This document shows, piece by piece, positions 1-12,998 of a DNA stretch of 15,331 bases (positions within the stretch are counted from its first letter, which is position 1; every line of letters begins with the position of its first letter). A program made the position numbers and the translations under genes. Below the pieces are notes generated by a model. The model was not told the origin of the DNA, made no database searches, and saw only the letters and a list, made by a program, of their open reading frames with translations. This DNA is from a virus (taxonomy: Duplodnaviria; Heunggongvirae; Uroviricota; Caudoviricetes), in the IMG/VR virus record IMGVR_UViG_2617270976_000002, positions 1-15,331 of that record. One strand, 5' to 3'.

Positions 1-46
1 AGCAGAATAATAATGGTGCGTAATTAATTCTGCAATCTCATCCGTT

Positions 47-1096
47 TCAAACGATTAAATCCTGAACTTCCCTGACTGTCTGCTCAAAACGTCCGGTCTC
101 CAGTTCAACGCCAATCGCACGACGCCCGAGCGCCAGTGCCGCTTTTACCGTTGAACCTGAGCCCATAAAAAAATCTGCAACCAGGTCACCCGGACGACTG
201 CTTGCGCTGATTATCTGCTGCAGCATTTCTGCCGGTTTTTCGCACGGATGTTTCCCGGGATAGAACTGCACCGGTTTATGTGTCCACACATCCGTGTACG
301 GCACCTGCGCCGTCACACCAAAATACCGCCGCAGATGCTTATATTCACTCTGCAGCTCCACATACTGCCGGTTCAGTGACGTATACGTATCCACCAGCTG
401 GTGGTGGGGCTTTTCCAGTTCACCGCGCTGATGTTTCTCTTCTGCCACCCGGGCAAACAGCGACTGTAATTTCAGATAATCGCTTTCGTTCGGTAGCTGC
501 CACTGACTGGCACTGAACCAGTGCGACACCATGTTTTTCTTTCCTGTGGCATCTGCAATCTGTTTTGCCGTTATCCCCAGGGCCGCGCGCGCATCACGAA
601 AGTAAGAAATCAGCGGGGCCATCACATGCTGTTTCAGTGCCCTGCCCTTCGCCTCATACCCGGCATCTTTCGGGCGATACGGCCCCTGATAATGTTCCGC
701 GAACAGAATGCGCTCTGTGGCGGGGAAATATGCCCTCAGGCTTTCCTTGTTGCACCCGTTCCAGCGTCCGGACGGCTTCGCCCAGATAATATGGTTCAGC
801 ACACTGAAGCGTTCACGCATCATGATTTCAATGTCAGACGCCAGGCGATGGCCACAGAACAGGTAAAGACTTCCGGCAGGTTTCAGCACCCGCCAGAACT
901 GCGCCAGACACTGGTCCAGCCACTTCAGGTAATCATCGTCGCCCTTCCACTGGTTATCCCAGCCCTCAGGCTTCACTTTAAAGTACGGCGGGTCCGTGAC
1001 TATCAGGTCAACAGAATTTTCGGGTAACGACCGGATAAATTCCAGGCAGTCAGCGTTGATCAACTCACAACTGGATATTTTTACAGTGTTAAACAT
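47..1096 (-). CDS. DNA N6-adenine methyltransferase (beta-class amino-MTase)
   Basis: 349-aa ORF. Catalytic motif DPPY (…DLIVTDPPYFK…) lies near the N-terminus and the AdoMet-binding motif FxGxG (…DFFMGSGSTVKAA…) near the C-terminus, which is the beta-class order. DPPY rather than SPPY/F favours N6-adenine specificity (family knowledge). Confidence 0.85.
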   Translation of the reverse strand: MFNTVKISSCELINADCLEFIRSLPENSVDLIVTDPPYFKVKPEGWDNQWKGDDDYLKWLDQCLAQFWRVLKPAGSLYLFCGHRLASDIEIMMRERFSVLNHIIWAKPSGRWNGCNKESLRAYFPATERILFAEHYQGPYRPKDAGYEAKGRALKQHVMAPLISYFRDARAALGITAKQIADATGKKNMVSHWFSASQWQLPNESDYLKLQSLFARVAEEKHQRGELEKPHHQLVDTYTSLNRQYVELQSEYKHLRRYFGVTAQVPYTDVWTHKPVQFYPGKHPCEKPAEMLQQIISASSRPGDLVADFFMGSGSTVKAALALGRRAIGVELETGRFEQTVREVQDLIV

Positions 1097-1232
1097 GGAT
1101 CATTAAGCCTGTCTCTGATAGGCTCATTCTGCTTTTGCGCAAAGCAGATGGGCCTGAGGTTTGCTTGTGATCCGGACGCATGAGCAGATGGCTGGTGAGT
1201 GCCCCTAACACCCACCAGCCGCCCATTTACCA

Positions 1233-1261
1233 CAAATAAAAAAGCCTTCAGGACTGAAGGC
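1233..1261 (-). terminator. Rho-independent terminator downstream of the small winged-helix gene
   Basis: Minus strand reads GCCTTCA-GTCC-TGAAGGC followed by TTTTTTATTTG: 7-bp GC-rich stem, 4-nt loop, U-tract. It overlaps the last codons of the 1248..1445 CDS. Confidence 0.6.
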
Positions 1262-1445
1262 GTCTGTAACAACCGAACTGATAGTCTGCCAGACCCGCCA
1301 TAACCAGCTGGGTCAGTATTAACTGGCAGCGTTCGCGTGAAAGGTAAGTATTCTGCGCAATCTCCCTGACTGTCGCCGGGTCGGTAACGCTTAATTCATT
1401 AAACACCACTCTGGCGGTTTCTGTCATATCCTGCTGTTTTAGCAT
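1248..1445 (-). CDS. small winged-helix-like protein (about 66 aa), FaeA/PapI-like by composition
   Basis: ORF track gives 1248..1580, but its first 45 codons run across the terminator hairpin at 1569-1596. The internal ATG at 1443-1445 (MLKQQDMTETARVVF…) follows a purine-rich RBS-like stretch. Family resemblance is weak and from memory. Confidence 0.5.
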   Translation of the reverse strand: MLKQQDMTETARVVFNELSVTDPATVREIAQNTYLSRERCQLILTQLVMAGLADYQFGCYRRLQS

Positions 1446-1568
1446 GTCTTTTTCCCTTTTCCGGTTAACGTGACATACCAATAACTCTTGTCGAAAAAGC
1501 CAGCAAGCTGAAAGACCCGTATTCGCAACCACCAGCGCGTTTACTGTACTGACGCGATTTTCGGACAT

Positions 1569-1596
1569 AAAAAAAACCACCTGGCGGTGGTTTTTT
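1569..1596 (-). terminator. strong intrinsic terminator (bidirectional architecture), candidate tR'-like
   Basis: Plus strand AAAAAAAA-CCACC-TGGC-GGTGG-TTTTTT; on the minus strand the stem is followed by eight U. Sits about 60 nt downstream of the 231-aa ORF stop. Confidence 0.7.
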
Positions 1597-1599
1597 CTT

Positions 1600-1672
1600 A
1601 CTTTGCCATCACGTACAAAATCGGCAAAATATCAGATTTATACGAAACATACGCGATTTAATTGACTTTTGC
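1600..1672 (-). promoter_or_regulatory. candidate late-type promoter between the Q-like gene and the terminator
   Basis: Minus strand carries TTGCAA, 17 nt, TATGTT, and a separate TATAAA, all within about 70 nt upstream of the terminator. Hexamer matching only; position relative to a Q-like gene is the main support. Confidence 0.25.
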
Positions 1673-2353
1673 AATATCTCGTCGTGAAAAGGTCGCTTTT
1701 TGTTGCGCTCTTATTTTCACGGAGCAAATCAAGGATTCTCTATCGAGGCGCTTAAAAATATCGCACATCTCACGCCAGTAGTTCGCATAATTATGGCTCC
1801 AGTTATCAGGCTTAACTCCACACAGTCTGGCAAGCTCCTGTCTCTGGTAGACCTCACACCCGGTAACCCATCCTCTGACATCCTGTGCCGCCAGCCAGAT
1901 CAACTTCTTCACACGCTCCAGCGTTTTCACTGCAATTTTTCTGGAGCCGGACTGAGTTTTAAATTCACTCCACACCCACTGCGTTATCGCGATCTGATGC
2001 TCCCAGCAAATGTTTCCGCCATAACACCACAACAACCACGCCTTCTGATGTTCTTCCAGTTCCAGAACGGCACGCCGCCACGATGATGTTGCAAACTCAA
2101 CAGGACTGACCAGCGCAATTGATGAGCCTTTCGCCAGTGATTGTTTACCCTGGATCGGGGGATTATCCCGCGTGATCATTTTTCCGGTTACCTCATCGCG
2201 GTAACGAATTTTTTTGCGTCTGTAACGCCCTGTATCGAACAGGGCATTTTCCTGCCAGGCTTCCAGCTGGCATTTTGTCGACCCACTGAGATCTGCAGTG
2301 GCAATCATGAGTTGCTCACGAACAAACTGTAAATACTGGTTATTCATGCACAC
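1658..2353 (-). CDS. putative late-gene antiterminator Q-like protein (function uncertain)
   Basis: 231-aa ORF with GTG start. It lies directly downstream of the rusA-like gene, where Q sits in phage 82-type lambdoid phages, and is followed by a promoter-like stretch and a strong terminator. It has no lambda-Q zinc-finger motif, so the function is inferred from synteny only. Confidence 0.4.
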   Translation of the reverse strand: MCMNNQYLQFVREQLMIATADLSGSTKCQLEAWQENALFDTGRYRRKKIRYRDEVTGKMITRDNPPIQGKQSLAKGSSIALVSPVEFATSSWRRAVLELEEHQKAWLLWCYGGNICWEHQIAITQWVWSEFKTQSGSRKIAVKTLERVKKLIWLAAQDVRGWVTGCEVYQRQELARLCGVKPDNWSHNYANYWREMCDIFKRLDRESLICSVKIRAQQKATFSRRDIAKVN

Positions 2354-2621
2354 CCACCTCTGTAATTCTTATCTCCAGCCGTCCACCAGATACTGGCTGG
2401 CCACGTACAATATTGATTTCATCAAACTGCTCATCGTCCATTAACAACCCCGCGTGCGTCAGCGCATCCAGTGGTGCTTTCAGAATATTGTCCAGGTCAC
2501 GACGACGCTTATCCGGTGGCTCTGCAATAATTTTTATTGCCAGCCGTCCGGACAGGCTTAATTTCAGTCGCTGCTGGCGAACAATAAGCGCCACTGAGGG
2601 CTTTCCTAAACTCATATCCAC
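2340..2621 (-). CDS. rusA: RusA-family Holliday-junction resolvase, N-terminally short
   Basis: …AIKIIAEPPDKRRRDLDNILKAPLDALTHAGLLMDDEQFDEINIV…GGRLEIRITE matches the conserved core of E. coli RusA (…[40 protein letters not shown]…GGRLELTITE, recalled). The frame is closed by TGA just upstream of the GTG start, so roughly 30 residues of the usual N-terminus are not encoded. Confidence 0.7.
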   Translation of the reverse strand: MDMSLGKPSVALIVRQQRLKLSLSGRLAIKIIAEPPDKRRRDLDNILKAPLDALTHAGLLMDDEQFDEINIVRGQPVSGGRLEIRITEVGVHE

Positions 2622-2781
2622 GTCTGCGGTAGTTATGAATCAGCCATTCGGCCTGTTCTTCAGTACAGGGATCGTGCTGATACCAGTCATATTTGAATGC
2701 GTGAGAACGCCACCCGTGCCTGCTGGCAAAGGCAGAATCAGAATTGCGAAATTTGAAATTATGCGCCATTGTCATCTCCAA
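2509..2781 (-). CDS. hypothetical protein (90 aa) overlapping the rusA-like start in another frame
   Basis: TTG-start ORF whose 3' 110 nt overlap the rusA-like ORF out of frame. Its N-terminal half (MAHNFKFRNSDSAFASRHGWRSHAFKYDWYQHDPCTEEQAEWLIH) does not resemble a RusA N-terminus. Could be a real small gene or a frameshift remnant. Confidence 0.3.
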   Translation of the reverse strand: MEMTMAHNFKFRNSDSAFASRHGWRSHAFKYDWYQHDPCTEEQAEWLIHNYRRRGYEFRKALSGAYCSPAATEIKPVRTAGNKNYCRATG

Positions 2782-2828
2782 TGGCGCTGCAGGTTGCCAG
2801 TTGTTCAGGCTGGCTCACGTATTATAAC

Positions 2829-3002
2829 TTATTCCCGAACTACCTTGAAACCGAGTCTTTCCAAGTATTCAATGAATGCCTCAACAGATAACACTACATG
2901 ATCATCAGGAATTAACGCTGTGTAGGTAATACCCCCATTCTCAACGCGCACAGCATAGAGGCCATCTTCACTAAAAATTTCACGTAATTCTTCGATTTTC
3001 AT
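2829..3002 (-). CDS. small hypothetical protein (57 aa)
   Basis: Hand-translated, below the ORF-track length cutoff: MKIEELREIFSEDGLYAVRVENGGITYTALIPDDHVVLSVEAFIEYLERLGFKVVRE. A GGAAGGA RBS sits about 8 nt upstream of the ATG at 3000-3002. Confidence 0.45.
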   Translation of the reverse strand: MKIEELREIFSEDGLYAVRVENGGITYTALIPDDHVVLSVEAFIEYLERLGFKVVRE

Positions 3003-3124
3003 CTTCAGAATCCTTCCAGATAAATAGCTCTTCCCCTTCGGGGTCCATCCCTCTTCTCCCTGCGCGCTACTTAAGTATTTTTGATTCTATTCCGGCACCA
3101 TCTAAAACTTCAAACGCGTTGAAA

Positions 3125-3155
3125 ATAAAAACAAAAACCCGCCGAAGCGGGTTAA
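3125..3155 (-). terminator. intrinsic terminator downstream of hok
   Basis: Minus strand CCCGC-TTCG-GCGGG followed by TTTTTGTTTTTATTTT: 5-bp GC stem with a UUCG tetraloop and a U-tract. Confidence 0.6.
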
Positions 3156-3221
3156 GTGCGGGTGCGTTGAGGATGCCTGACACATCAGAGGTGGCGAGGG
3201 ATTTCTCCCCCGCCCGGTCTC

Positions 3222-3377
3222 TTACTCCTCAGGTTCGTAAGCTGTGAAGACAGCGACCTCCGTCTGGCCGGTTCGGATTCGTACCTCGCAGAGGTCTTTC
3301 CTCGTTACCAGTGCCGTCACTATGACGGTTAAACAGATGACGATCAGGGCGATTAGCATCGCCTTTTGCTGCTTCAT
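3222..3377 (-). CDS. hok: Hok/Gef-family membrane toxin (HokD/RelF-like, 51 aa)
   Basis: MKQQKAMLIALIVICLTVIVTALVTRKDLCEVRIRTGQTEVAVFTAYEPEE has the Hok signature: single transmembrane helix, then conserved RK.LCE..IR…EVA.F.AYE. Matches my recollection of E. coli HokD/RelF. An AAGGAG SD sits 9 nt upstream of this ATG. Confidence 0.85.
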   Translation of the reverse strand: MKQQKAMLIALIVICLTVIVTALVTRKDLCEVRIRTGQTEVAVFTAYEPEE

Positions 3378-3434
3378 AGCCTGCTTCTCCTTGCCTTTCG
3401 GCACGTAAGAGGCTAACCTACGTGTGTAGAGCAT
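3222..3434 (-). CDS. mok: Mok-like in-frame upstream extension of hok (70 aa)
   Basis: Upstream ATG at 3432-3434 opens MLYTRRLASYVPKGKEKQA in frame with hok. This resembles the N-terminus of MokC (MLNTCRVPLTDRKVKEKRA…, recalled), the reading frame that modulates Hok translation. Confidence 0.5.
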   Translation of the reverse strand: MLYTRRLASYVPKGKEKQAMKQQKAMLIALIVICLTVIVTALVTRKDLCEVRIRTGQTEVAVFTAYEPEE

Positions 3435-3668
3435 AGATATGGCCTCAGATTAATGTTAAGCGTCTTGCCGGACGCGTAATGTTAACTGGGGCTTTTCTCT
3501 ATCTGCCTTTTGGTGTTCATGCCTGAGACAGATAGCCTCAAGCACCCGCTGCAATTCTACTTAACTCTCCTTTTCCCGCAAACCGTTTTTATCCCCAGCG
3601 GCAAATCGAATACACCACCAGCGCCACCGCCATCGCAATTCCTACCGTTGTTAATGCTTCAGGCCAGG

Positions 3669-3974
3669 TCATCGTAAAATATCCTCCACGCTTATCAGTC
3701 CGTTCCGCTCCAGATAACTCATCGCCTTATCCGGTAATTTGCAGTCTGGCTTCGCTTTCCTCAGTTGCCAGGTTAACTGCTTTACCAGCATGGTTAACTC
3801 ATCGACCAGACGCTGATATCCCACTGGTTTGTATTCATGCAATTTACCGGCTGGCTCTGCTGCCAGCGATGCCAGCGCAATCCGTGCCAGTTCCATTTGT
3901 TCACCACGGGTAAGCCCGTTTTCAAGCGGGTTTTTAATGAACAATTCAATACGTTCTTTGGTAATAGTGGTCAT
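3669..3974 (-). CDS. hypothetical protein (101 aa)
   Basis: Six-frame ORF with ATG start, same orientation as neighbours and tightly packed; no recognisable motif. Confidence 0.6.
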   Translation of the reverse strand: MTTITKERIELFIKNPLENGLTRGEQMELARIALASLAAEPAGKLHEYKPVGYQRLVDELTMLVKQLTWQLRKAKPDCKLPDKAMSYLERNGLISVEDILR

Positions 3975-3984
3975 GTGTTACTCC

Positions 3985-4248
3985 TTAACCCGCAGTGCTT
4001 TCAACTGATGAGGGGAACAAAATCTTTTCATCAAACCCTGCATTCATATCATGGACAGCAACACACCAATCCATTGACGAACGATTATCAAGAGCCTCCA
4101 TGATTTCATCCATGCGGCGCAGGTCATACAGGTAAATGCTTTTATCGCCAATGGTGTAAAAACCAATTTTTTTCGGTGATGGACAGCGATCAAGAACGTC
4201 CTGTAATTCGCTCAACCATGCTTGTTCTTTTTTTGTCAAAGTTGCCAT
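3985..4248 (-). CDS. hypothetical protein (87 aa)
   Basis: ORF with ATG start preceded by AAGGAGAG. Its 5' junction sequence is duplicated at the next gene upstream. Confidence 0.6.
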   Translation of the reverse strand: MATLTKKEQAWLSELQDVLDRCPSPKKIGFYTIGDKSIYLYDLRRMDEIMEALDNRSSMDWCVAVHDMNAGFDEKILFPSSVESTAG

Positions 4249-4249
4249 A

Positions 4250-4741
4250 TCACTCTCCTTTGATGCGAATGCCAGTGGTACTCATTCTCCTGATTTCCCA
4301 GAGCACACGAGGAACACCACCGTTTCCGACCGGATCGCGTTTACTCCGCAGGGCGACGCTTGATTCCGCCCAGCTTTTTCTTGGAGGAAGCTCTTTCACA
4401 CGAACAAAACCAGCTGCGCGGAGAGATGCTCCTGATTCATCTGCCTGGGTGTACGTAATACAACGTTGATAACCCATAGCCTTTGCTGCCCGCCAGACAG
4501 CACCATAAAGCGCGCTGTTAGCGTTGCGTTCTCCTGTGGTACATGTGCGATTTACTTCAAGCGTTAATCCATCGTCCAAATGTCGTGCAACAGGTCTACC
4601 GGCTGTCGCCACACCTATCAATTCTCCGGCATCATTTCTCAGACCAATGCTGAATTTATGCCCCACCGGGGGTTTATTGTGTCGGTGATGTCTGGATATA
4701 AACGCCTTCGCAACACGAAGAGTAACCGGTGAAATTTGCAT
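4250..4741 (-). CDS. hypothetical protein (about 163 aa), possibly acetyltransferase-like
   Basis: ORF track gives 4250..4780. The ATG at 4739-4741 (MQISPVTLRVAKAF…) has a strong AAGGAGAG RBS and sits 2 nt after the upstream stop, so I prefer it. C-terminal half (…NANSALYGAVWRAAKAMGYQRCITYTQADESGASLRAAGF…) vaguely resembles a GNAT-type motif. Confidence 0.55.
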   Translation of the reverse strand: MQISPVTLRVAKAFISRHHRHNKPPVGHKFSIGLRNDAGELIGVATAGRPVARHLDDGLTLEVNRTCTTGERNANSALYGAVWRAAKAMGYQRCITYTQADESGASLRAAGFVRVKELPPRKSWAESSVALRSKRDPVGNGGVPRVLWEIRRMSTTGIRIKGE

Positions 4742-4743
4742 TC

Positions 4744-5103
4744 TCACTCTCCTTTGATGCCAATGTTTACAGACTGGCAAGCCTCTTTGAGCACCCAGTC
4801 AACAGCGTCTTTCCATGCTCCGGTTTCGACTGGCGGATTCTCACGCTTTACCTGTTCATAAAAGCGCACAGCTTTAACCAGTCCTTCTGATGTCACCGAA
4901 GCTGGCGGGGCCGTGAATAACGCCTGAATTTCATAGTTTGGTCTGTCGTTACAATCCTCTTTTGTCGGGACATATTTCCAGTCACCAACCCACTGCTTCC
5001 CCTGAAAGTCTGTAACGCCTTTTTTCACGTAGCGATATCGCCATGCCACTGGTTTTGCCTGCCCTGCCTTTTCATGCCCTTCCTGATAATTAATCTCGCT
5101 CAT
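4744..5103 (-). CDS. hypothetical protein (119 aa)
   Basis: ORF with ATG start. Ends …NIGIKGE*, the same C-terminal pentapeptide and stop context as the 4250..4741 gene. Confidence 0.6.
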   Translation of the reverse strand: MSEINYQEGHEKAGQAKPVAWRYRYVKKGVTDFQGKQWVGDWKYVPTKEDCNDRPNYEIQALFTAPPASVTSEGLVKAVRFYEQVKRENPPVETGAWKDAVDWVLKEACQSVNIGIKGE

Positions 5104-5104
5104 T

Positions 5105-5276
5105 CATCGCCCCACTCATCACAATATGCTTCGACCGGTGTTTTCCCTGCTTCATAATCATCACGCCATGCTTCAGCATCAGCGGCACTTCCACCGCGTA
5201 ACTCTGCATAATCCATTAACAGTTCATGCCATTCTTCAAAACTGGCGTTATATTTAGTTGAACCAAAATCAGCCAT
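5105..5276 (-). CDS. small acidic protein (57 aa)
   Basis: Hand-translated, below the ORF-track cutoff: MADFGSTKYNASFEEWHELLMDYAELRGGSAADAEAWRDDYEAGKTPVEAYCDEWGDE. Start overlaps the upstream gene's stop by 8 nt; stop abuts the next start. Confidence 0.45.
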
Positions 5277-5451
5277 TTTGTTCTTCCTCTTCGTCTTTTA
5301 TTTCGTGGTATGAGTAATTGCAGTAGTTAAAGAAAATATCTTTAGCTTCATCCTGTATTTCATCTGGTGTTGCATCATCATCCACTTCGAATTCATCCTC
5401 GAAATCTCCACCGGCTATTCCCGTTTCAATAATTATTTTGAATTTTCGCAT
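5269..5451 (-). CDS. small highly acidic protein (60 aa)
   Basis: MRKFKIIIETGIAGGDFEDEFEVDDDATPDEIQDEAKDIFFNYCNYSYHEIKDEEEEQNG: about one third of residues are D or E. Confidence 0.5.
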   Translation of the reverse strand: MRKFKIIIETGIAGGDFEDEFEVDDDATPDEIQDEAKDIFFNYCNYSYHEIKDEEEEQNG

Positions 5452-5579
5452 TTCACTACCGCCCTTTCGGACGGCCTCCTGATGTTCTGAGGGTGCAGGA
5501 ATCCCTCCGGTTAAGGATTTAATAAAAATCGTTTCTGATTTAAATCTTCAGTATTTAGTTGTTAGTCGGTTTATAGCCT

Positions 5580-5891
5580 TTATGCTTCGGCCTTATTTCT
5601 CAGCCATACACAAACCGGGCCATCTTCGGTGTCATGTATTGAACCAATAAACCATCCATTGCCCTCTGGTCGTTCCGGTTCCCATGCAGAAATATCAGCA
5701 TCACACGCATCAAGGTCAGCACATCCTTCATCTCTGAAGCAGAGGACGTATTGAAGATTATTTTCCTCCATCCAGGCGTTAAACTCTTCCGTTGAAATAT
5801 ATTCCCGACCGTCACAGAATTTTTCATATTCAGGATGCGTCCAGTAGCCATATTCATCACGTACTACTGGTATTTCTTTAATTTCATTCAT
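5580..5891 (-). CDS. hypothetical protein (103 aa)
   Basis: ATG-start ORF whose start overlaps the upstream stop by 8 nt. Acidic and Trp-rich. The alternative frame 5600..5860 looks like a shadow. Confidence 0.6.
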   Translation of the reverse strand: MNEIKEIPVVRDEYGYWTHPEYEKFCDGREYISTEEFNAWMEENNLQYVLCFRDEGCADLDACDADISAWEPERPEGNGWFIGSIHDTEDGPVCVWLRNKAEA

Positions 5892-6138
5892 TTCTGTTCT
5901 CCCACGTTTTCAGACTTTCACCACAGAACGGACAAAATGAAACCCGAACTGGTAATTTAGAAAATTCACCGGAACGCAACATCACAAAATCAGGACCGCG
6001 AGTTAAACTCTCATTCCAGATTTTGTATATCAGCAGACCTTTTCGCATCGTGTATTCAGCATCACGCTCAAGGGACTTTGCCAGTGCTGCACATGGTTCT
6101 ATCTTGTTGCCATTAACCTGGCATTTTGATTCACTCAC
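5884..6138 (-). CDS. small zinc-ribbon-like protein (84 aa)
   Basis: Cys at both ends (…SKCQVNGNKIEPCAAL… and …SFCPFCGES…), i.e. CxxC-type pairs. Start overlaps the upstream stop (ATGA). Confidence 0.6.
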   Translation of the reverse strand: MSESKCQVNGNKIEPCAALAKSLERDAEYTMRKGLLIYKIWNESLTRGPDFVMLRSGEFSKLPVRVSFCPFCGESLKTWENRNE

Positions 6139-6563
6139 CGCACCACCTCCTCAAAATTCCCCTGATAAAACGCCAGTACACGCTGCATAGCTTCACTCTT
6201 CCGGCACTCGCGACAGATTATGTTTAGGCGCCTGTCGTAGCGGCGTATTTCGCCGTCTGGTAATAGCCAGATAAGGTCCGGATCAACCACAGATGGTTTC
6301 TTCAGCTTTGCCCTTGAGAGTTTTTTGCGGGCGTTTTGCCAGTCCTTGCGCGCCTGCTCAGACGGGAATACTCCGTAACCGGAATTGTAAACATCACCAC
6401 TGGCGGCCAGCTCCATGCATAAACGACCGACAGACGCATGACTGACACCAATTTCATCCGATAACTGCCGAATCGTGCCTCGTCCGTTAAGGCGTACGAA
6501 TTCCACGATCAGCCCCTTAATTTTTTCCCGCTCTTCTGGTGTAAATGCTCTTGTCATAAGCAC
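6135..6563 (-). CDS. HTH/winged-helix DNA-binding protein (142 aa)
   Basis: …GRGTIRQLSDEIGVSHASVGRLCMELAASGDV… has a helix-turn-helix pattern; basic C-terminal region. Confidence 0.6.
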   Translation of the reverse strand: MLMTRAFTPEEREKIKGLIVEFVRLNGRGTIRQLSDEIGVSHASVGRLCMELAASGDVYNSGYGVFPSEQARKDWQNARKKLSRAKLKKPSVVDPDLIWLLPDGEIRRYDRRLNIICRECRKSEAMQRVLAFYQGNFEEVVR

Positions 6564-6572
6564 CTCCGGAGA

Positions 6573-7316
6573 TCACTTTGTTGTCGGTGAATGAACCGGA
6601 ATATCAGCAATCGAACTGAAAATATCCCGGTGTTTATTCAGCTCCCGCAGCGCGGCGCAGACTCGCTCCCACTTCTGAACCTGACCTTTTGCCCGGCGCA
6701 GCTCACGGTTAGCCACATGCAGCGATGGTAAAATCAGACCATCCGGATGTTTTCTGGTGAACGACGGCTGTGACTGCACTGTGACCGCCACACTTTCCGT
6801 TTTTATTTCTTCCTGTGTTTCTGCTTCCCGAACTGGTAACGCAACACCTGCTGGCTGAGGAAAGGCTTTACCATCGGTTTCCGCTACGGATGCAGCTTCC
6901 GGCTCTGCCGGTAAATCAGCGCCCGGTATGCAGTAACGAAATTTACCGCCCTGATTCACGCGAATCAGACGCCCTTTGCTGATTGCCATGGCCAGCGATG
7001 AATTCGCCCGGCGGGAGGTAATCCCGAACATCAGTGCCAGCTCATCCGCCGTTTGTGGGCCATGTTGTTCAATCGCCTCAGTCAGCATTTGCGCTGTCAC
7101 TTTCGGTACCGGTGACACCGGTTCACTTTCACCAGCCTGAATCAGCCACCACATCGAACCCTTGTTATCCGCTTCACCGCGGCGCTTCAGTTTCCACAGT
7201 TCGTTGACCGCATCTTTACGGCTGATTCCAAGGCGGGCCGCCACTACCTGTGAAGAGGCTCTTTTCAGTGCTTTCAGTGCGTCAAATACGGTTTCCATTA
7301 AAATTTCCTCCGACAA
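6573..7316 (-). CDS. two-domain winged-helix protein (247 aa)
   Basis: Two HTH-like segments (…[26 protein letters not shown]… and …[30 protein letters not shown]…) separated by a Pro/Ala/Glu-rich linker. Lies immediately downstream of the P-like gene. Confidence 0.6.
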
Positions 7317-7331
7317 AATCGTTTCTCAGAT

Positions 7332-7997
7332 TCAAATAAAACCAGCTGCCTTCCGGCGTTCGTATTCCTGTTTCAGCCGTTCAATTGGCGTTGGCCCTTG
7401 CGGGTGTTTCGCCCCTTCCAGTTGTCGTCGCACTGGCGGAACACTCATCCCGTTACCAACATGCTTTGCCCATTTCGTCAGTTGCCGTTCTGCAAGTCGT
7501 TTTAACTCACCCTGCGTCATCTGGCGCTCAATCCCTCTGGTACGCATTTCGAGGCAGATGTGGTACAGCACAGGCTGTGGCCACGGGTATTTATCACTCC
7601 CGTCGTATCGCCAGGATTCATTGCGCCAGCGCCGGTACTCTTCCATCACTGCATCCACCGTAAGACCAAATGGATTTGCCCCACTCTCCGAAATCAGTGC
7701 AACAAACTCAGCCAGGTCCGGGGGCCACGTTTCACCCGCCCGGCAGCGGTCCATGCACTGACGGCAGACCAGCCGGATTTGCTGTTCAGTCATCGCGCCA
7801 ATCTGGGCAATCCAGAGCTTCGAAGGTGCGGCCCCGTTCTTCTGGGTCCAGCGGTTCGAATAAACCTCCCCCATGAGTTCCCACAGCTTCCAGACCGTTT
7901 CCGTCGCTGATAAATCCGTTTTCACGTTCCCACTGCTCACGTGCTGCCCGAATTTCCTGAACTGCCCGTGATGCGGTGCCACCTGGTGCTGCTGCAT
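7332..7997 (-). CDS. lambda-P-like replication protein (DnaB helicase loader); start uncertain
   Basis: …ETWPPDLAEFVALISE… and …YPWPQPVLYHICLEMRTRGIERQMTQGELKRLAERQLTKW… parallel lambda P (…PFLPSPGQFVAWCRE… and …YPWKSNAHYWLVTNLYQNMRANALTDAELRRKAADELVHM…, recalled). The longest ORF overlaps the O-like gene by about 210 nt; the true start is probably internal. Confidence 0.7.
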   Translation of the reverse strand: MQQHQVAPHHGQFRKFGQHVSSGNVKTDLSATETVWKLWELMGEVYSNRWTQKNGAAPSKLWIAQIGAMTEQQIRLVCRQCMDRCRAGETWPPDLAEFVALISESGANPFGLTVDAVMEEYRRWRNESWRYDGSDKYPWPQPVLYHICLEMRTRGIERQMTQGELKRLAERQLTKWAKHVGNGMSVPPVRRQLEGAKHPQGPTPIERLKQEYERRKAAGFI

Positions 7998-8832
7998 GGT
8001 TTACCCCCTTGCTGACTGGCTTAACCTGCGCCCTGACGTGATTTACGTGACGGGCGAATTTCTGCTCCCACTGAACCTGCGTGAAAACTTTCCCCTCCGC
8101 TGCCCAGTAGTCCCGGAAAGCGGCAAGTTCAGCAGGTGTAAATTCCGGCTCCGGCAAAGCCATCCCCCACAACGCAGCCCGTCGTCGAAAATCCGGCGAC
8201 GGATGCCAGTCATCGACCATCGGAAATTTCCCGATGGGTTCGCTCAGTCCATCCAGGGATGCAGGTTCTGCTGCCTGCAACGGCGTACCACTCGACTCAC
8301 TGGTCGGAGCACTCTCGCGCACGTGCGCGTTATGTGTGGGGTTTAATTCTTTATCTGTATCTTTATCTGTCGTGACTCGTCGTGACATGTCGTGACATAT
8401 GCGTGACTCGTCGTGACACCCCTCATTCTGTTTTCGTAATTTATCCCTCTCGCGCTGCGCTCTCTTGCGCTCTGCCGGGGATTTCGCGGTTTGTGAAACG
8501 TTGCCATTGTCCTCTTTCAGTACCTGGCGTTTTTCCCATCCGGTGATTAAATCTCCATCAAGTACCCGCCCCTGCATTGCCTGTAAAATTGAATCAATTA
8601 CTTCTTCCGTCACATCAAGCGCACTTGCTAAATCTTCCGTCGTGACATCAATGTGACCACGTAGTGACACGCCGTGACATGTCGTGACATTTCGTGACGC
8701 GTTCACCAGAAGGTGGATATACACCGCCATCACTGTTGCAATTGGCTGTCCTGACACCCTGGAAATTGTTCGCCACTTAGGATCATTTGGCATGTCATGC
8801 CATAACCTGAGCCAGGCATTAGCCATACTCAC
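7786..8832 (-). CDS. O-like replication initiator with DnaT-like C-terminal domain
   Basis: 348 aa. The C-terminal segment …IGKFPMVDDWHPSPDFRRRAALWGMALPEPEFTPAELAAFRDYWAAEGKVFTQVQWEQKFARH… closely parallels E. coli DnaT (…[62 protein letters not shown]…, recalled). Both iteron arrays lie inside this gene, and it sits directly upstream of the P-like gene. Confidence 0.8.
   Translation of the reverse strand: MSMANAWLRLWHDMPNDPKWRTISRVSGQPIATVMAVYIHLLVNASRNVTTCHGVSLRGHIDVTTEDLASALDVTEEVIDSILQAMQGRVLDGDLITGWEKRQVLKEDNGNVSQTAKSPAERKRAQRERDKLRKQNEGCHDESRICHDMSRRVTTDKDTDKELNPTHNAHVRESAPTSESSGTPLQAAEPASLDGLSEPIGKFPMVDDWHPSPDFRRRAALWGMALPEPEFTPAELAAFRDYWAAEGKVFTQVQWEQKFARHVNHVRAQVKPVSKGVNHAAAPGGTASRAVQEIRAAREQWERENGFISDGNGLEAVGTHGGGLFEPLDPEERGRTFEALDCPDWRDD
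8369..8417. repeat. iteron array A: five direct (G)TCGTGAC repeats at 10-11 bp phasing, next to an AT-rich tract
   Basis: CGTGAC at about 8371, 8381, 8391, 8402 and 8412. Preceded at 8341-8370 by an AT-rich tract containing a tandem CTTTATCTGT repeat. Located in the linker-coding middle of the O-like gene. Confidence 0.6.
8641..8698. repeat. iteron array B: six direct (C)GTGAC repeats at about 10 bp phasing
   Basis: GTGAC at about 8641, 8653, 8664, 8673, 8683 and 8693, plus one inverted copy (GTCAC) near 8612. Located in the N-terminal-domain coding part of the O-like gene. Confidence 0.55.
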
Positions 8833-8897
8833 CTCTTCTGATACCGAATCTTTTTACTCACGAATTACCGGAAGCGATCCGGTATGAATATTGTCAG

Positions 8898-9323
8898 TCA
8901 ATGCACAACCACAATATTTCCCGCCGGGCCACCACGATTCATCTGGTTGAAACCAGCGATCGCCACTGCGACAAAATCATCAGCGTCTCTCACCAGTCGT
9001 TCCCGCGTCTCCACCAGCTCCCGAAAATAAGCTGAACTGTGGCTGCGCATTCGGGCCACCAGCAGAGGCGGCATTGCTTTTTCGATCGCTGGTAACAACG
9101 CCTGAATTTTTTTAACCGCATCAGGAGTGTCTTTCTCCACCCAGCGGAAAATTTTCTGGGTATTGCGAGCCAGGGCTTCCGGATGGCTGTCGTCATATAA
9201 TTCCGGGAACGTCATACCAAGCTCAAAATAAGCCCGGGTTATTTCAGCTGCCGGAACTTTTTCACCGTCCGGATGCGCCCAGGCATTCATCGCCATGCGG
9301 ATGTGCTCATGCCTGATTTTCAT
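8898..9323 (-). CDS. YdaT-like protein (occupies the cII position)
   Basis: 141 aa. MKIRHEHI… start, internal …KKIQALLPAIEKAMPPLL… and C-terminal …VVVH resemble Rac prophage YdaT as I recall it. Start overlaps the Cro-like gene's end by 17 nt. Confidence 0.6.
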   Translation of the reverse strand: MKIRHEHIRMAMNAWAHPDGEKVPAAEITRAYFELGMTFPELYDDSHPEALARNTQKIFRWVEKDTPDAVKKIQALLPAIEKAMPPLLVARMRSHSSAYFRELVETRERLVRDADDFVAVAIAGFNQMNRGGPAGNIVVVH

Positions 9324-9582
9324 GAATCAACTCCGATGCATTTGGTGTGTTAGCCTTGAATCCAACAGGTAAGCCGTCGGTTGGATTCGGGTAAATATCA
9401 GGCCGGAGTTCATGAGGTGTAACCTCGAAATTCGTTACTTCAGCAACACGTAATGCTTTTTCAGGGCTGAATCTTTCATAGCCCCCCAGCACTCGACTTA
9501 CATGCACCTGAGATAAACCCGTTAGCTTCCCAAACTGTAGCTGGGTGATATGTTTCTCTTTTAAATAGTCTCTTAAGTTCAT
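9307..9582 (-). CDS. Cro-like HTH protein (YdaS-type)
   Basis: ORF track start is a TTG at 9588; I prefer the ATG at 9580-9582 (MNLRDYLKEKHITQLQFGKLTGLSQVHVSRV…), which has a GAAGG RBS. HTH near the N-terminus; …ELRPDIYPNP… resembles the ELRPDI motif of YdaS (recalled). Divergent from the repressor gene. Confidence 0.7.
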   Translation of the reverse strand: MNLRDYLKEKHITQLQFGKLTGLSQVHVSRVLGGYERFSPEKALRVAEVTNFEVTPHELRPDIYPNPTDGLPVGFKANTPNASELIHENQA

Positions 9583-9689
9583 AGCCAACCTTCTACGTTA
9601 TGCCCCGAGCAAATATTAGCCCCACTAATTTTAAAGATCAATAGCCAGGCTATCTTTGATAATATCGGTAAAACAAATAAACTCTATGT
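9583..9689. promoter_or_regulatory. immunity-region control region: divergent promoters with TAGCC-type operator half-sites
   Basis: Leftward promoter on the minus strand: TTGATC (9636-9641), 17 nt, TAATAT (9613-9618). Rightward extended -10 TGaTAATAT at about 9657-9665. Perfect palindrome ATAGCCAGGCTAT at 9641-9653, with related sites TTAGCCCCACTAA (9616-9628) and ATAGCCAACC (9581-9590). Confidence 0.5.
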
Positions 9690-10151
9690 ATGAAAAAAAC
9701 ACGCGAAGTGATTGCAACTCCAGCAGCGAGCAAGAATTTAAAAGCCGCATGGAATGCAAGAAAAAAAGAGCTGAAGCTGACTCAAGAGCTGGCGGCTGAG
9801 TTGTTGGGATTCGAATCTCAAGGCACCGTTAGCCAGTATCTGAACGGCAAGATACCGGTAAATACCGACGCTGCGCTAAAATTTGCGGCTCTGTTAAAGG
9901 TAAAACCAGAGGACATTCGAGAAGACCTTAAAGACTTAATGAATTATGTAAGATCATCAGATACTTATGATGATAGCTTTTCAGGCAAAGGATGGAGGCT
10001 GGTCAATGAAGAACAGGCAGAGTTACTTAACCTCTTCGAGATTCTACCTGCGTCAGAAAAAGCCAAACTCCTTAACCAGCTACGTGGACTAAACAAGCTC
10101 TACGAGGAAGCCTTCGAGAACATGCTGGCACTAAAGAAACGTAACCAGTAG
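9690..10151 (+). CDS. DicA-like prophage repressor (HTH_XRE, no S24 peptidase domain)
   Basis: 153 aa. HTH …LTQELAAELLGFESQGTVSQYLNG…; C-terminal …ELLNLFEILPASEKAKLLNQLRGLNKLYEEAFENMLALKKR parallels the DicA C-terminus (…ELLELFNALPESEQDTQLAEMRARVKNFNKLFEELLKARQR, recalled). No Ala-Gly/Ser-Lys autocleavage module is visible. Confidence 0.75.
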   Translation: MKKTREVIATPAASKNLKAAWNARKKELKLTQELAAELLGFESQGTVSQYLNGKIPVNTDAALKFAALLKVKPEDIREDLKDLMNYVRSSDTYDDSFSGKGWRLVNEEQAELLNLFEILPASEKAKLLNQLRGLNKLYEEAFENMLALKKRNQ

Positions 10152-10176
10152 CCACCGCTCACTACCCCATCCACAA

Positions 10177-10207
10177 CAAAAAAACCGACGTCTTAGTCGG
10201 TTTTTTT
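10177..10207 (+). terminator. intrinsic terminator after the repressor gene
   Basis: AAAAAAA-CCGAC-GTCTTA-GTCGG-TTTTTTT: symmetric A-tract, stem and U-tract, about 25 nt after the stop. Confidence 0.65.
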
Positions 10208-10304
10208 GTGCCATAACTTCTGCAAATCAGCTGTATAACTAATATTTTTCCCTTGAAAAAACATTTACATAGTTACCAAATCAAAAATATCATACGCCAT
10301 ACTG

Positions 10305-10333
10305 TTGACTTAAAATATCCGTGTTACTAATAT
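10305..10333 (+). promoter_or_regulatory. strong sigma70-type promoter for the ydfA-dicF-dicB operon
   Basis: TTGACT (10305-10310), 17-nt spacer, TAATAT (10328-10333). The first gene starts about 70 nt downstream. Confidence 0.5.
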
Positions 10334-10404
10334 TTCTATCAAGAACAACACGGCGCTGTAGGTTTTAGTTCCGCCACCCGGCGTTAAGGGGAAATGAGGT
10401 CAAC

Positions 10405-10557
10405 ATGGATATGCTCAATCTTGGCAACAACGAATCTCTGGTATGTGGTGTGTTCCCCAACCAGGACGGCACATTCACCGCGATGACGTATACCAAAAGT
10501 AAAACGTTTAAAACCGCAGCTGGCGCGCATCGCTGGTTAGCAAGAAACACTGACTGA
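10405..10557 (+). CDS. ydfA: YdfA-like small protein (50 aa)
   Basis: Hand-translated, below the ORF-track cutoff: MDMLNLGNNESLVCGVFPNQDGTFTAMTYTKSKTFKTAAGAHRWLARNTD, with GAGGT RBS. Size and position (first gene after the DicA-like repressor) match Qin ydfA. Replaces the antisense ORF 10365..10550. Confidence 0.55.
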   Translation: MDMLNLGNNESLVCGVFPNQDGTFTAMTYTKSKTFKTAAGAHRWLARNTD

Positions 10558-10568
10558 TGAGGTTGACG

Positions 10569-10907
10569 ATGGAATTTAAAGATTTACCTCCTTCAATCCA
10601 GGAGATTGCAGCACACACGCTTCGTCATCGTCTGAACGAACTTGAATTGGAATCGGTAACAAAAAAAGACACTGATAATATGGCTCGTAATGTGCGCGAT
10701 GCGTTTACTGGGCTGTTTTCAGATACAGCTTTAAATATCCATGGCACAGAGGATACAGCAAAACAATTTGCAGAAAAAGAAGTGGAAGATCCCAGTTCAA
10801 AGAGCCAGAAACAGCCAAACAACCATGAAATTAACGAACTGCTTCTGGCAACAGGCTTCATAAATATTAACGAATATGAACGCCGTAAAAAAATGTTATC
10901 TGATTAA
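10569..10907 (+). CDS. hypothetical protein (112 aa)
   Basis: ORF track gives a TTG start at 10557; the ATG at 10569 (MEFKDLPPSIQEIAAHTL…) is preferred. Acidic and Lys-rich; occupies the ydfB/ydfC position. Confidence 0.55.
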   Translation: MEFKDLPPSIQEIAAHTLRHRLNELELESVTKKDTDNMARNVRDAFTGLFSDTALNIHGTEDTAKQFAEKEVEDPSSKSQKQPNNHEINELLLATGFININEYERRKKMLSD

Positions 10908-11090
10908 TCCATCAAGATATCTTTTTAGCATCAGCGTTTCTACGTTATTAAAACCATCAGATTTTAACATAGCTTCGATTCGCTGATTTAAATTGCCAAC
11001 TAACTGTTGATACTGAGTAGATGGAAGCATGTGTACCAGCTCCTTGAGAACACAATAACATGCACCAAGTTTTAACTCCTGCTCTGACAT
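10896..11090 (-). CDS. small convergent ORF (64 aa) on the strand opposite the operon
   Basis: MSEQELKLGACYCVLKELVHMLPSTQYQQLVGNLNQRIEAMLKSDGFNNVETLMLKRYLDGLIR with GGAGGA 4 nt upstream. The plus strand is closed in all frames here. Tail-to-tail overlap of 12 nt with the 112-aa gene. Confidence 0.4.
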   Translation of the reverse strand: MSEQELKLGACYCVLKELVHMLPSTQYQQLVGNLNQRIEAMLKSDGFNNVETLMLKRYLDGLIR

Positions 11091-11429
11091 TTTATCCTCC
11101 ATTGAGGTTACTGGTTGAGAATGGAGACCTCTCGTGACAGCGTGTGGTCGTGCGCCGGACACGGATAAGAATCCGGCACTGACAGTTTACTGAAAGGATA
11201 TTTCCCTGAAAAGTCAGACCATAACGCGACAGCGCACGGCGAGGTAGCTGGTTCATAGATAGCCTGTCGTTAAATTTTCGTCGACCGTGCGCTTCCGGTT
11301 GTGGCAATCCGCGAAATGGCGCGGCGGTAAGTATGGCGGGGTTATTCCTTCCCCCGTTGAGGACACCGGGTTGTCAGGTTGACCATACGCTTAAGTGACA
11401 ACCCCGCTGCAACGCCCTCTGTTATCAAT

Positions 11430-11487
11430 TTTCTGGTGACTTTTGGCGGTATCAGTTTTACTCCGTGACTGCTCTGCCGCCCTTTTT
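11430..11487 (+). ncRNA. dicF: DicF small RNA (ftsZ-targeting sRNA of Qin-type prophages)
   Basis: TTTCTGGTGACTTTTGGCGGTATCAGTTTTACTCCGTGACTGCTCTGCCGCCC followed by TTTTT matches my recollection of the 53-nt E. coli DicF almost base for base. The 3' GGCGG…CCGCC stem plus U-tract forms its terminator. Confidence 0.8.
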
Positions 11488-11768
11488 AAAGTGAATTTTG
11501 TGATGCGGTGAATGCGGCTGAGCGCACGCGGAACAGTTAAAACCAAAAACAGTGTTATGGGTGGATTCTCTGTATCCGGCGTTAATTGTTAACTGGTTAA
11601 CGTCACCTGGAGGCACCAGGCACCGCATCAACAAAGTTCACTTCGGTGATGAAAGGTAAGAGAAAATGTTGAATGTAGCTATTGAAAACCAGAACGGGTG
11701 GAATTATAGTGCACCTGCACCTCATAAAACGGGTGCCGGGCGTGGAAACCCGAAATCATTCACGGCGC

Positions 11769-11795
11769 ATAACCGCGCTCAGGCGGTTTTTTTAT
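11769..11795 (+). terminator. intrinsic terminator or attenuator in the rha leader
   Basis: AACCGC-GCTCAG-GCGGTT followed by TTTTTTT, nested in a longer inverted repeat (GCGCATAA…TTATGCG). About 170 nt upstream of the rha start. Confidence 0.45.
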
Positions 11796-11962
11796 GCGTT
11801 AAGCACAGCCACATTCGCATTATGGTGGGGCGTGCAGGGCAGCCGCAAGGCTGGCCGGGTTCCGTGATGACCGGTATTTCCACCCCTGTACGTCTCACCA
11901 CCCTTATGGTCGTGGAAAACCTCGGTGGTGAGTTAATCAAATTCATCGCGGAGGCTGCCATC

Positions 11963-12520
11963 ATGGCTACTATCCTTACCCTTTCTCACCCTGACGTAAC
12001 CATCGAAAATGGTCGCGCTGTCACTACGTCTGTTGCGATCGCCGAGTTCTTTGGCAAACGCCACGAACGAGTGTTGGATAAAATTCGCAATCTGGACTGT
12101 TCAGCAAAATTCACTGAGCACAATTTTGTGTCGAGCGAATACACCGACTCAACCGGGCGCAAACTCCCAATGTACCAAATCACCAAAAACGGCTTCGTTT
12201 TCCTGGTGATGGGGTTCACAGGTAAAAAAGCCGCAACTTTCAAAGAAGCCTACATCGCTGAGTTCGATCGCATGGAGGAAGAACTGCGCCAGAATAACGC
12301 CCCGTCTCCCGACAAAATGATTCACGGGGACGGACGCACCCTGGTTATCCGTCTCGACGAACACGGCAATATCAAATTCACTGAAACCGTTCCTGACGGC
12401 GCAATGGTCTGCACCCTGGATACCTTCCGGTTTTATCTGGAGAAACAAGGATGGACTCTTGTAAACCGGAGCGCAATTAAAAATATGACTGTGGAGCAAT
12501 TGCTAAAAATTCATTGTTGA
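11963..12520 (+). CDS. rha: Rha-family phage regulatory protein
   Basis: ORF track gives 11666..12520. The ATG at 11963 (MATILTLSHPDVTIENGRAVTTSVAIAEFFGKRHERVLDKIRNL…) has a GGAGG RBS 8 nt upstream and puts the pRha-type domain at the N-terminus, as in this family. The upstream 99 codons are Gly/Arg/Pro/His-rich and span a terminator. Confidence 0.7.
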   Translation: MATILTLSHPDVTIENGRAVTTSVAIAEFFGKRHERVLDKIRNLDCSAKFTEHNFVSSEYTDSTGRKLPMYQITKNGFVFLVMGFTGKKAATFKEAYIAEFDRMEEELRQNNAPSPDKMIHGDGRTLVIRLDEHGNIKFTETVPDGAMVCTLDTFRFYLEKQGWTLVNRSAIKNMTVEQLLKIHC

Positions 12521-12530
12521 GGACGCGATA

Positions 12531-12719
12531 ATGGAAACGTCACTACCAAACGTTAATACGTCTGACGGGTGCTTTAATATTGGTGTTCTGCTCAGTAACA
12601 GGGATTTCACCGAGGATGCAATCAATATGAGAAAATATGAACCCTACCTGCTGAATGACAATTCCATACTCTCCAGAATTGCCCTTCTTAAACTCGGTAT
12701 TTTCGGAGAGTGGCGATGA
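12531..12719 (+). CDS. dicB: DicB-like cell-division inhibitor
   Basis: METSLPNVNTSDGCFNIGVLLSNRDFTEDAINMRK… parallels E. coli DicB (MKTLLPNVNTSEGCFEIGVTISNPVFTEDAINKRK…, recalled). 62 aa, GAGGA RBS, start 11 nt after the rha stop. Confidence 0.85.
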   Translation: METSLPNVNTSDGCFNIGVLLSNRDFTEDAINMRKYEPYLLNDNSILSRIALLKLGIFGEWR

Positions 12720-12919
12720 ACACATTATTCGTACTCATTCTGACTGTACATCTCAATACTGGTGAGTCGCTTGATGCAATCACCGGCATGTACAACTCAA
12801 TGAAAGAATGCATGGCTGCCGCAGCGGAACAGAAAATTCCCGGCAACTGTTATCCGGTCGATAAAGTTATTCACATGGACAATAACGAAATCCCGGCAGG
12901 ATTAAAAACAGCGCCGTAA
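12716..12919 (+). CDS. ydfD: YdfD-like small membrane protein
   Basis: MNTLFVLILTVHLNTGESLD…MKECMAAAAEQKIPGNCYPVDKVIHMDNNEIPAGL resembles Qin YdfD (recalled). Hydrophobic N-terminus; start overlaps the dicB stop. ORF track start is a GTG at 12710. Confidence 0.7.
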   Translation: MNTLFVLILTVHLNTGESLDAITGMYNSMKECMAAAAEQKIPGNCYPVDKVIHMDNNEIPAGLKTAP

Positions 12920-12998
12920 TTAATATCCAGTTTCATTTTTATATGCCAGCAATGGCAGGGATTTGTTCACCCTTAAATCTGTAATGAGGTAAAACAAA

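Follow-up and report, generated by a model that had tools for sequence, protein, structure and literature searches.

A lambdoid prophage with a complete and probably functional hok/mok/sok toxin–antitoxin module of the hokD/hokW subtype in its nin-like region

Introduction

The hok/sok (parB) locus of plasmid R1 has a proven role in post-segregational killing, and a closed conformation of its hok mRNA, as well as the role of the ucb box, have been described (PMC9841398). A phage-borne counterpart, hokW-sokW, is located near the right genome end of the Stx2 phage 933W (= Sakai prophage Sp5), in which all three genes, hokW, mokW and sokW, are annotated. For this system, toxicity, Sok-dependent rescue, both RNAs on Northern blots and membrane localisation have been shown; upon RecA-dependent prophage induction, Sok vanished and Hok appeared, and, compared to a deletion mutant, lysis occurred earlier and the phage yield was roughly doubled (PMC8621323). 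What hok/sok does in a prophage is known from this single study, which concerns a copy placed elsewhere in its phage genome than the one analysed here (PMC8621323). Prophage retention and abortive infection are other documented roles of the family, and the enrichment of hok in prophages has already been reported.

Two loci of Escherichia coli K-12 complete the set of close relatives. The hokC/mokC/sokC (gef) locus belongs to the chromosomal backbone rather than to a prophage nin region and has IS186 just downstream, whereas hokD (relF) resides in the Qin prophage, in the arrangement relB-relE-hokD; toxicity of HokD upon overexpression has been reported (10.1101/2025.08.07.668861). The family and its mechanism are thus textbook matter and the subtype has been tested experimentally, as hokW-sokW. 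Below, we compare with these systems a further, already known type of module, found in a viral contig from IMG/VR.

Genomic context of the locus

The DNA analysed here (IMG/VR record IMGVR_UViG_2617270976_000002, positions 1 to 15,331), hereafter the window, is a 15,331-nt stretch of a lambdoid prophage. On the minus strand, the replication genes are followed by numerous small open reading frames (ORFs), hok, a truncated rusA, a gene for a Q-like antiterminator (PHROG 304) and, finally, one for a DNA methyltransferase; the plus strand carries the DicF/dicB side of the immunity region. This gene order, from immunity and replication via the small ORFs to hok, rusA and the Q-like antiterminator, makes the term ‘nin-equivalent region’, used in the original prediction, a fair one. 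The comparison presented below leaves little doubt that the cargo in this nin-like region is a complete, probably functional hok/mok/sok type I toxin–antitoxin module of the hokD/hokW subtype.

The rusA gene (2340-2621, minus strand) is truncated at its 5′ end by ~35 codons, such that only residues 36-119 of the EcPF7 RusA align. The N-terminal part was sought in all frames and none was found, and the window lacks the DUF968 gene by which rusA is preceded in related prophages. This arrangement suggests that a deletion or recombination event has left its joint in the stretch from hok to rusA. On the other side of hok, PHROG 660 is split (3669-5103, minus strand), with profile positions 34-143 in ORF 4744..5103 and positions 145-193 in the C-terminal half of ORF 3669..3974. 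The two halves are separated by a PHROG 1714 gene (3985..4248) and a Mom-like gene for DNA modification (4250..4780; PHROG 1384, E = 9.6e-43), an arrangement suggestive of inserted cargo or of a mosaic joint.

An unannotated hydrophobic ORF of 27 aa (3589-3672, minus strand; MTWPEALTTVGIAMAVALVVYSICRWG), the ATG of which overlaps the stop codon of the 101-aa ORF (ATGA), leaves 42 nt between its end and the start of the hok transcript downstream; this ORF is also conserved in 933W and gave no match against PHROG. On the plus strand, three small RNAs of the prophage reach their Rfam gathering scores: DicF (11431-11482; 75.8 bits), isrK (11717-11793; 67.7 bits) and the C4 antisense RNA (11818-11905; 81.9 bits). 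The latter two are inside the 5′ part of ORF 11666..12520, the EcPF7 prophage counterpart of which appears to be annotated as a Rha-family phage regulator.

Toxin reading frames

The features assigned to the hok strand are as follows.

3554..3581, minus strand: putative hok promoter (−35-like TTGCGG at 3581..3576, 16-nt spacer, −10 TAGAAT at 3559..3554)
3127..3547, minus strand: full-length hok mRNA, ~421 nt, delimited by the Rfam leader match and the terminator
3536..3547, minus strand: tac box, GGGUGCUUGAGG, at the 5′ end of the hok mRNA (nt 1-12)
3488..3495, minus strand: ucb (anti-SD) box, AAAGCCCC; C57, C58 and C60 pair with the mok Shine–Dalgarno (SD) in the full-length minimum free energy (MFE) fold
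3443..3446, minus strand: mok SD, GAGG, 8 nt upstream of the mok AUG, read from the sequence
3434..3222, minus strand: mok reading frame of 70 codons, which contains hok in the same frame
3392..3387, minus strand: hok SD, AAGGAG, read from the sequence
3222..3377, minus strand: hok toxin gene, 51 aa plus stop, ATG at 3377
3160..3172, minus strand: fbi box, CCUCAACGCACCC, located 49 nt beyond the stop codon of hok
3127..3153, minus strand: hok intrinsic terminator, an AACCCGC-UUCG-GCGGGUU stem-loop (3153..3136) followed by a T run

The toxin had been described from the sequence as HokD/RelF-like, with an in-frame Mok-like extension and its own AAGGAG SD, and all three elements are confirmed. 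The Hok peptide, which corresponds to residues 20-70 of the 70-aa ORF, is 100% identical to the K-12-type HokD (51 residues) and 92% identical to HokW, with four C-terminal residues differing in the latter. It covers the entire Pfam HOK_GEF profile (PF01848; positions 1-42 of 42, E = 2.9e-23), and a match to PHROG 251, ‘MokW-like host killing’, was obtained as well (E = 7.8e-33). Members of the Hok family are toxins of ~50 aa in which an N-terminal transmembrane helix is joined to a conserved periplasmic portion, and the peptide conforms to this description. A match of Mok to Pfam DUF6232 (E = 0.006) was below the cutoff and was set aside. Disruption of Hok residues, which would have spoken for an inactive product, was looked for and not found: all family-invariant residues (C15, T17, T25, R26, L29, E31, R35, G37, E40, V41 and A42) are intact.

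The in-frame mok extension represents the normal architecture of the family, being present also in MokW, MokC and R1-type Mok. The frame has the same 70 codons in 933W and in R1, and R1 shares the GAGG-8nt-ATG mok start, even though its Hok is only 41% identical to that of the window; for the K-12 HokC, the identity is 82%. The hok Tyr47 codon, UAC at 3237-3239 (minus strand), lies in the context GCUUACGAACC, that is, in a UACG motif, which is reported to undergo TadA A-to-I editing (Tyr to Cys) in hokB, with similar findings for hokC, hokD and hokE (10.1101/2025.08.07.668861). Editing of Tyr47 would provide a second cysteine for a disulfide with Cys30.

Extent and folding of the hok mRNA

The covariance model RF01794 of Rfam matches 3372..3547 on the minus strand from end to end (model positions 1-157 of 157), scoring 117 bits where the gathering threshold is 59 (E = 1.3e-26). 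Although named ‘sok antitoxin’, the model has the same sense as hok and stops at the hok AUG; it describes, therefore, the conserved, structured leader of the hok mRNA, with a tac stem, a Sok-complement hairpin and a target hairpin. The transcript start, set by homology, is at G3547, where the model begins, ~7 nt past the −10; this promoter-to-start geometry matches those of hokC (TATAAT-AGCGGC-GGGTGC) and R1-type hok (TATGAT-GTGCCC-GGCGC). The −35 is poor, and the promoter was missed by a consensus scan of positions 2900-3800 that required at least 4 of 6 matches per hexamer for promoters and an uninterrupted stem for terminators. Promoter-like matches on the minus strand at 3459..3430 (in the leader) and 3113..3084 (downstream) were treated as chance, with 2 found versus 0.9 expected from shuffles; the former overlaps the hypervariable cassette considered below and is not conserved in other alleles.

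These coordinates extend the interval originally proposed for the locus, 3120-3480, which contains the toxin region but is too short: the hok mRNA starts near 3547, with the −10 further upstream, so that the interval lacks mRNA nt 1-67, with the tac box, a 5′ hairpin and ucb, as well as the 3′-terminal third of Sok. The hairpins noticed within this interval are recovered in the minimum-energy fold, namely, UGCC-GAAA-GGCA just upstream of the hok SD and CUAC-ACAC-GUAG right after the mok ATG, and the UUCG-loop terminator is present as described, with the T run after it.

Fold-back pairing, for which a fold of the whole transcript had been suggested, is indeed predicted. The 421-nt hok mRNA has an MFE of −170.6 kcal/mol (z = −6.5 versus shuffles), and in both the MFE and the centroid structures, tac and fbi are joined by 12 pairs with one bulged C. 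In both structures, moreover, the CCCC of ucb is base-paired to the GAGG of mok, and the hok AAGGAG is paired too. The tac and fbi boxes are identical between 933W and the window, and R1 contains the same tac, fbi and ucb boxes, with its tac reading GGCGC instead of GGGUGC and a matching fbi. IMG/VR loci found with the Mok protein were 96-100% similar, too close for covariation, and a GTDB scan with a Hok alignment was used instead. Across ~60 related loci, tac and fbi covary (GGGUGC/GCACCC, GGCGC/GCGCC, GGGCGCC/GGCGCCC and GGGUGCC/GGCACCC), and in nearly all of them, the best 3′ partner of the cognate tac is 46-58 nt past the hok stop codon. The predicted full-length fold corresponds to the closed and untranslatable conformation known from R1 (PMC9841398). 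The alternative tac-ucb pairing is possible (−10.7 kcal/mol) and is part of the Rfam consensus structure. MFE folds of 3′-truncated hok mRNAs, ending at nt 375, 379 and 385, contain no open tac-ucb stem, thermodynamic prediction not being decisive here, and the refolding step is therefore one that we infer from the described systems.

The Sok antisense gene

The original prediction left open whether the locus is antisense-regulated or silent, as no Sok promoter and terminator could be recognized with confidence on the plus strand. When this strand is aligned to the annotated sokW (933W) and to the K-12 genes sokC and sokB, the Sok gene is located as follows.

3391..3419, plus strand: Sok promoter (−35 TTGCCT at 3391-3396, 17-nt spacer, −10 TAACCT at 3414-3419)
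3426..3502, plus strand: Sok antisense RNA, 71-77 nt; its ends (3426 and ~3496-3502) are by alignment to sokW (71 nt) and K-12 sokC

The RNA begins with a 5′ single-stranded tail, GUAGAGCAUAGAUAUG, which is complementary to the mok start codon and spacer, continues with a long hairpin (3441-3493; −31.8 kcal/mol, z = −4.65) and ends in a U-rich tail, UUUUCUCUAU. The −35 partly coincides with the complement of the hok SD. In R1, too, the antisense promoter lies over the complement of the hok ribosome-binding site and the Sok hairpin carries a U-tail, with the −10 being TATCCT rather than TAACCT. More generally, the pattern TTGnnn-17-TAnnnT occurs at the same place across 77 loci from GTDB species representatives, including R1 (TTGCGC-17-TATCCT). 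The annotated K-12 sokC aligns end to end with the predicted Sok, the tail GGGGCUUUUCUCUAU being common to both, but has a different −10 region (CACTCT) and a shorter hairpin. The closest agreement is with sokW of 933W, in which the promoter (−35, spacer and −10) and the terminator hairpin are base for base the same as in the window.

The predictor scan of 2900-3800 detected neither a promoter nor a terminator on the plus strand, a result that is overruled by the homology. The promoter was missed because the −10, TAACCT, matches the consensus at only 3/6 positions, and the terminator because its stem contains internal mismatches; for the same reasons, Sok could not be found in the original prediction. 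That this promoter matters is known from sokW: a ‘promoter-less’ mutant lost protection, whereas Sok from its own promoter protected cells, and the mutagenic primers of that study, from which the mutation was judged, change TAACCTA to GAGCCGG, exactly the −10 that corresponds to 3414-3419 (PMC8621323). We conclude, from sequence comparison, that the plus strand carries a Sok gene complete with promoter and terminator. Of the two states considered originally, the identity of the Sok promoter and hairpin to those of the validated sokW settles the matter for antisense regulation, at the level of predicted function.

Comparison with prophage relatives and alternative explanations

Overall, the 933W locus is ~94% identical to that of the window at the DNA level, over 90% of its length. 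The two diverge right after fbi (3127-3155 in the window; 2950-2990 in the 933W locus sequence), and 933W lacks the UUCG terminator, which the window shares with K-12 hokD. Together with the different positions of the two loci in their genomes, the right end in 933W versus the nin region here, this comparison evidently reveals a hok module that moves as a unit ending at fbi.

An intact locus, defined as at least 80% of its 501 nt, is present in 3826 of the 5426 complete E. coli genomes (~70%), at a median of 2 places per genome (maximum, 9), and is found in many Stx and other lambdoid phages; RefSeq records of the locus annotate only the ‘hokD’ coding sequence. The exact 70-aa Mok of the window recurs in 41 IMG/VR contigs, and its cassette allele is the commonest one, which fits a maintained rather than a decaying gene.

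An alternative, which we regard as improbable, is that the locus is a structurally intact but silent relic, transcribed too weakly or repressed too tightly for Hok to be made, as concluded for hokA, hokB and hokC of K-12 and the ECOR strains. These native chromosomal loci were reported to cause neither post-segregational nor rifampicin-induced killing (summarised in 10.1101/2025.08.07.668861); an intact structure is, therefore, no guarantee of activity, and we retain a small probability of silence. Moreover, both promoters are weak by consensus, and the host prophage is decaying, with its rusA truncated. Nevertheless, all regulatory boxes and both reading frames are intact, and the nearly identical hokW-sokW produces Hok upon induction and alters lysis timing and phage yield. 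The prevalence of the intact locus in E. coli and the low diversity of its hok coding sequence and Sok promoter likewise argue against a relic.

The original prediction was also correct in that relBE neighbours are missing: no relBE was found in the window, and the upstream genes (3669..3974 and 3985..4248) are phage ORFs of unknown function. K-12 hokD encodes the same 51-aa toxin and shares the hok ribosome-binding site, the 3′ UTR, fbi and the terminator. However, in K-12-type genomes (for instance, ATCC 8739, with relB, relE and hokD annotated), the alignment with the window sets in abruptly at 3391, with 99% identity from there to the end of the terminator, whereas tac, ucb, the mok start and the Sok gene with its promoter are missing and the end of relE abuts instead; the 170-nt leader of the window is absent from these copies. 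Since the similarity is confined to the part from the hok ribosome-binding site on, the relBE-hokD arrangement of K-12 is, judging by this alignment, a truncated derivative form, and for this reason, the absence of relBE from the window is not an anomaly. Pedersen and Gerdes (1999) are said to have put the inactivation of hokD down to a major rearrangement, which agrees with truncation. The possibility that the toxin is Sok-less and expressed only as the tail of an upstream operon, in the style of K-12 relB-relE-hokD and with a non-functional mok/Sok region, is extremely slim: Hok is indeed identical to K-12 HokD and hok is co-oriented with the phage genes upstream, no terminator being predicted in between, but the similarity to K-12-type copies excludes the leader, which here reaches 117 bits on Rfam and carries the conserved antisense promoter and a hairpin identical to that of the functional sokW. 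With only ‘hokD’ annotated in the RefSeq records, comparison with K-12 can mislead, making the toxin seem unregulated or relBE seem missing, when the intact form with mok and Sok is the majority state.

Proposed mechanism

For the intact, antisense-regulated module favoured here, the following course of events can be proposed; the ends of the hok and Sok transcripts are set by homology only, the steps are taken from R1 and hokW-sokW, and the pairings at the mRNA ends are supported by the folding and covariation presented above. A weak constitutive promoter would yield the hok mRNA of ~420 nt, which would be inert at full length, with tac paired to fbi, ucb covering the mok ribosome-binding site and the hok ribosome-binding site paired as well. 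Slow trimming from the 3′ end would remove fbi, whereupon tac would pair with ucb and the mok start region would open, permitting translation of mok and, driven by it, of the in-frame hok. The unstable Sok, of ~71 nt, would bind the opened mok start region through its 5′ tail and block mok/hok translation, the Sok–hok mRNA duplex then being cut by RNase III. When Sok synthesis stops, be it because the element is lost, transcription is shut off or the prophage is induced, the pool of stable mRNA would give rise to Hok, which would insert into the inner membrane and depolarise it. By analogy with the described systems, the prophage would probably profit by being retained, by being assisted in lysis upon induction, as in hokW-sokW, or in both ways.

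A hypervariable cassette in the recognition region

The otherwise conserved locus contains one conspicuously variable segment.

3417..3441, both strands: hypervariable 25-nt cassette, covering the Sok 5′ tail and discriminator and the mok start region

On the hok strand, the cassette comprises the mok spacer, ATG and first codons; on the Sok strand, it contains nt 1-16 of Sok together with the nucleotides that separate the −10 from the Sok start. Among 11 distinct hokD-type sequences, 76% of the cassette columns are variable; the corresponding values are 6% for the adjacent Sok hairpin and 15% for the Sok promoter as well as for the hok coding sequence. A scan anchored only on the identical flanks identified 22 cassette variants, 7 of them common, in 119 IMG/VR contigs; the pairwise diversity is 0.289 in the cassette versus 0.04-0.06 in neighbouring parts. 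When six common alleles were compared, 6-9 of the 16 Sok-tail positions differed, except for one pair that differs at 3. The 933W locus carries a different allele from that of the window, with 6 of the 16 positions distinct. Two genomes with three hok copies each contain three different alleles each, but this observation is uninformative as evidence, because it is estimated to arise by chance in ~70% of cases at the observed allele frequencies.

We tentatively suggest, as a possibility that falls short of an even chance, that the cassette is a specificity module, whereby the Sok of each prophage would recognise only its own hok mRNA. A search of a limited collection of papers for hok/sok cross-talk or recognition-tail variability yielded nothing relevant; the R1 hok/Sok, for its part, did not cross-talk with chromosomal K-12 hok loci (PMC9841398).

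Concluding remarks

Apart from the variability of the cassette, the locus offers nothing biologically new, and the value of the analysis for annotation is small. The possible function of the cassette as an orthogonality device among co-resident prophages is the only thread that may be worth following. Should it hold true, several hok/sok prophages could share one cell, each of them ‘addictive’, given that the loss of one would not be rescued by the Sok of another, and this would imply diversifying selection on the antisense-RNA recognition tail within an otherwise conserved locus.
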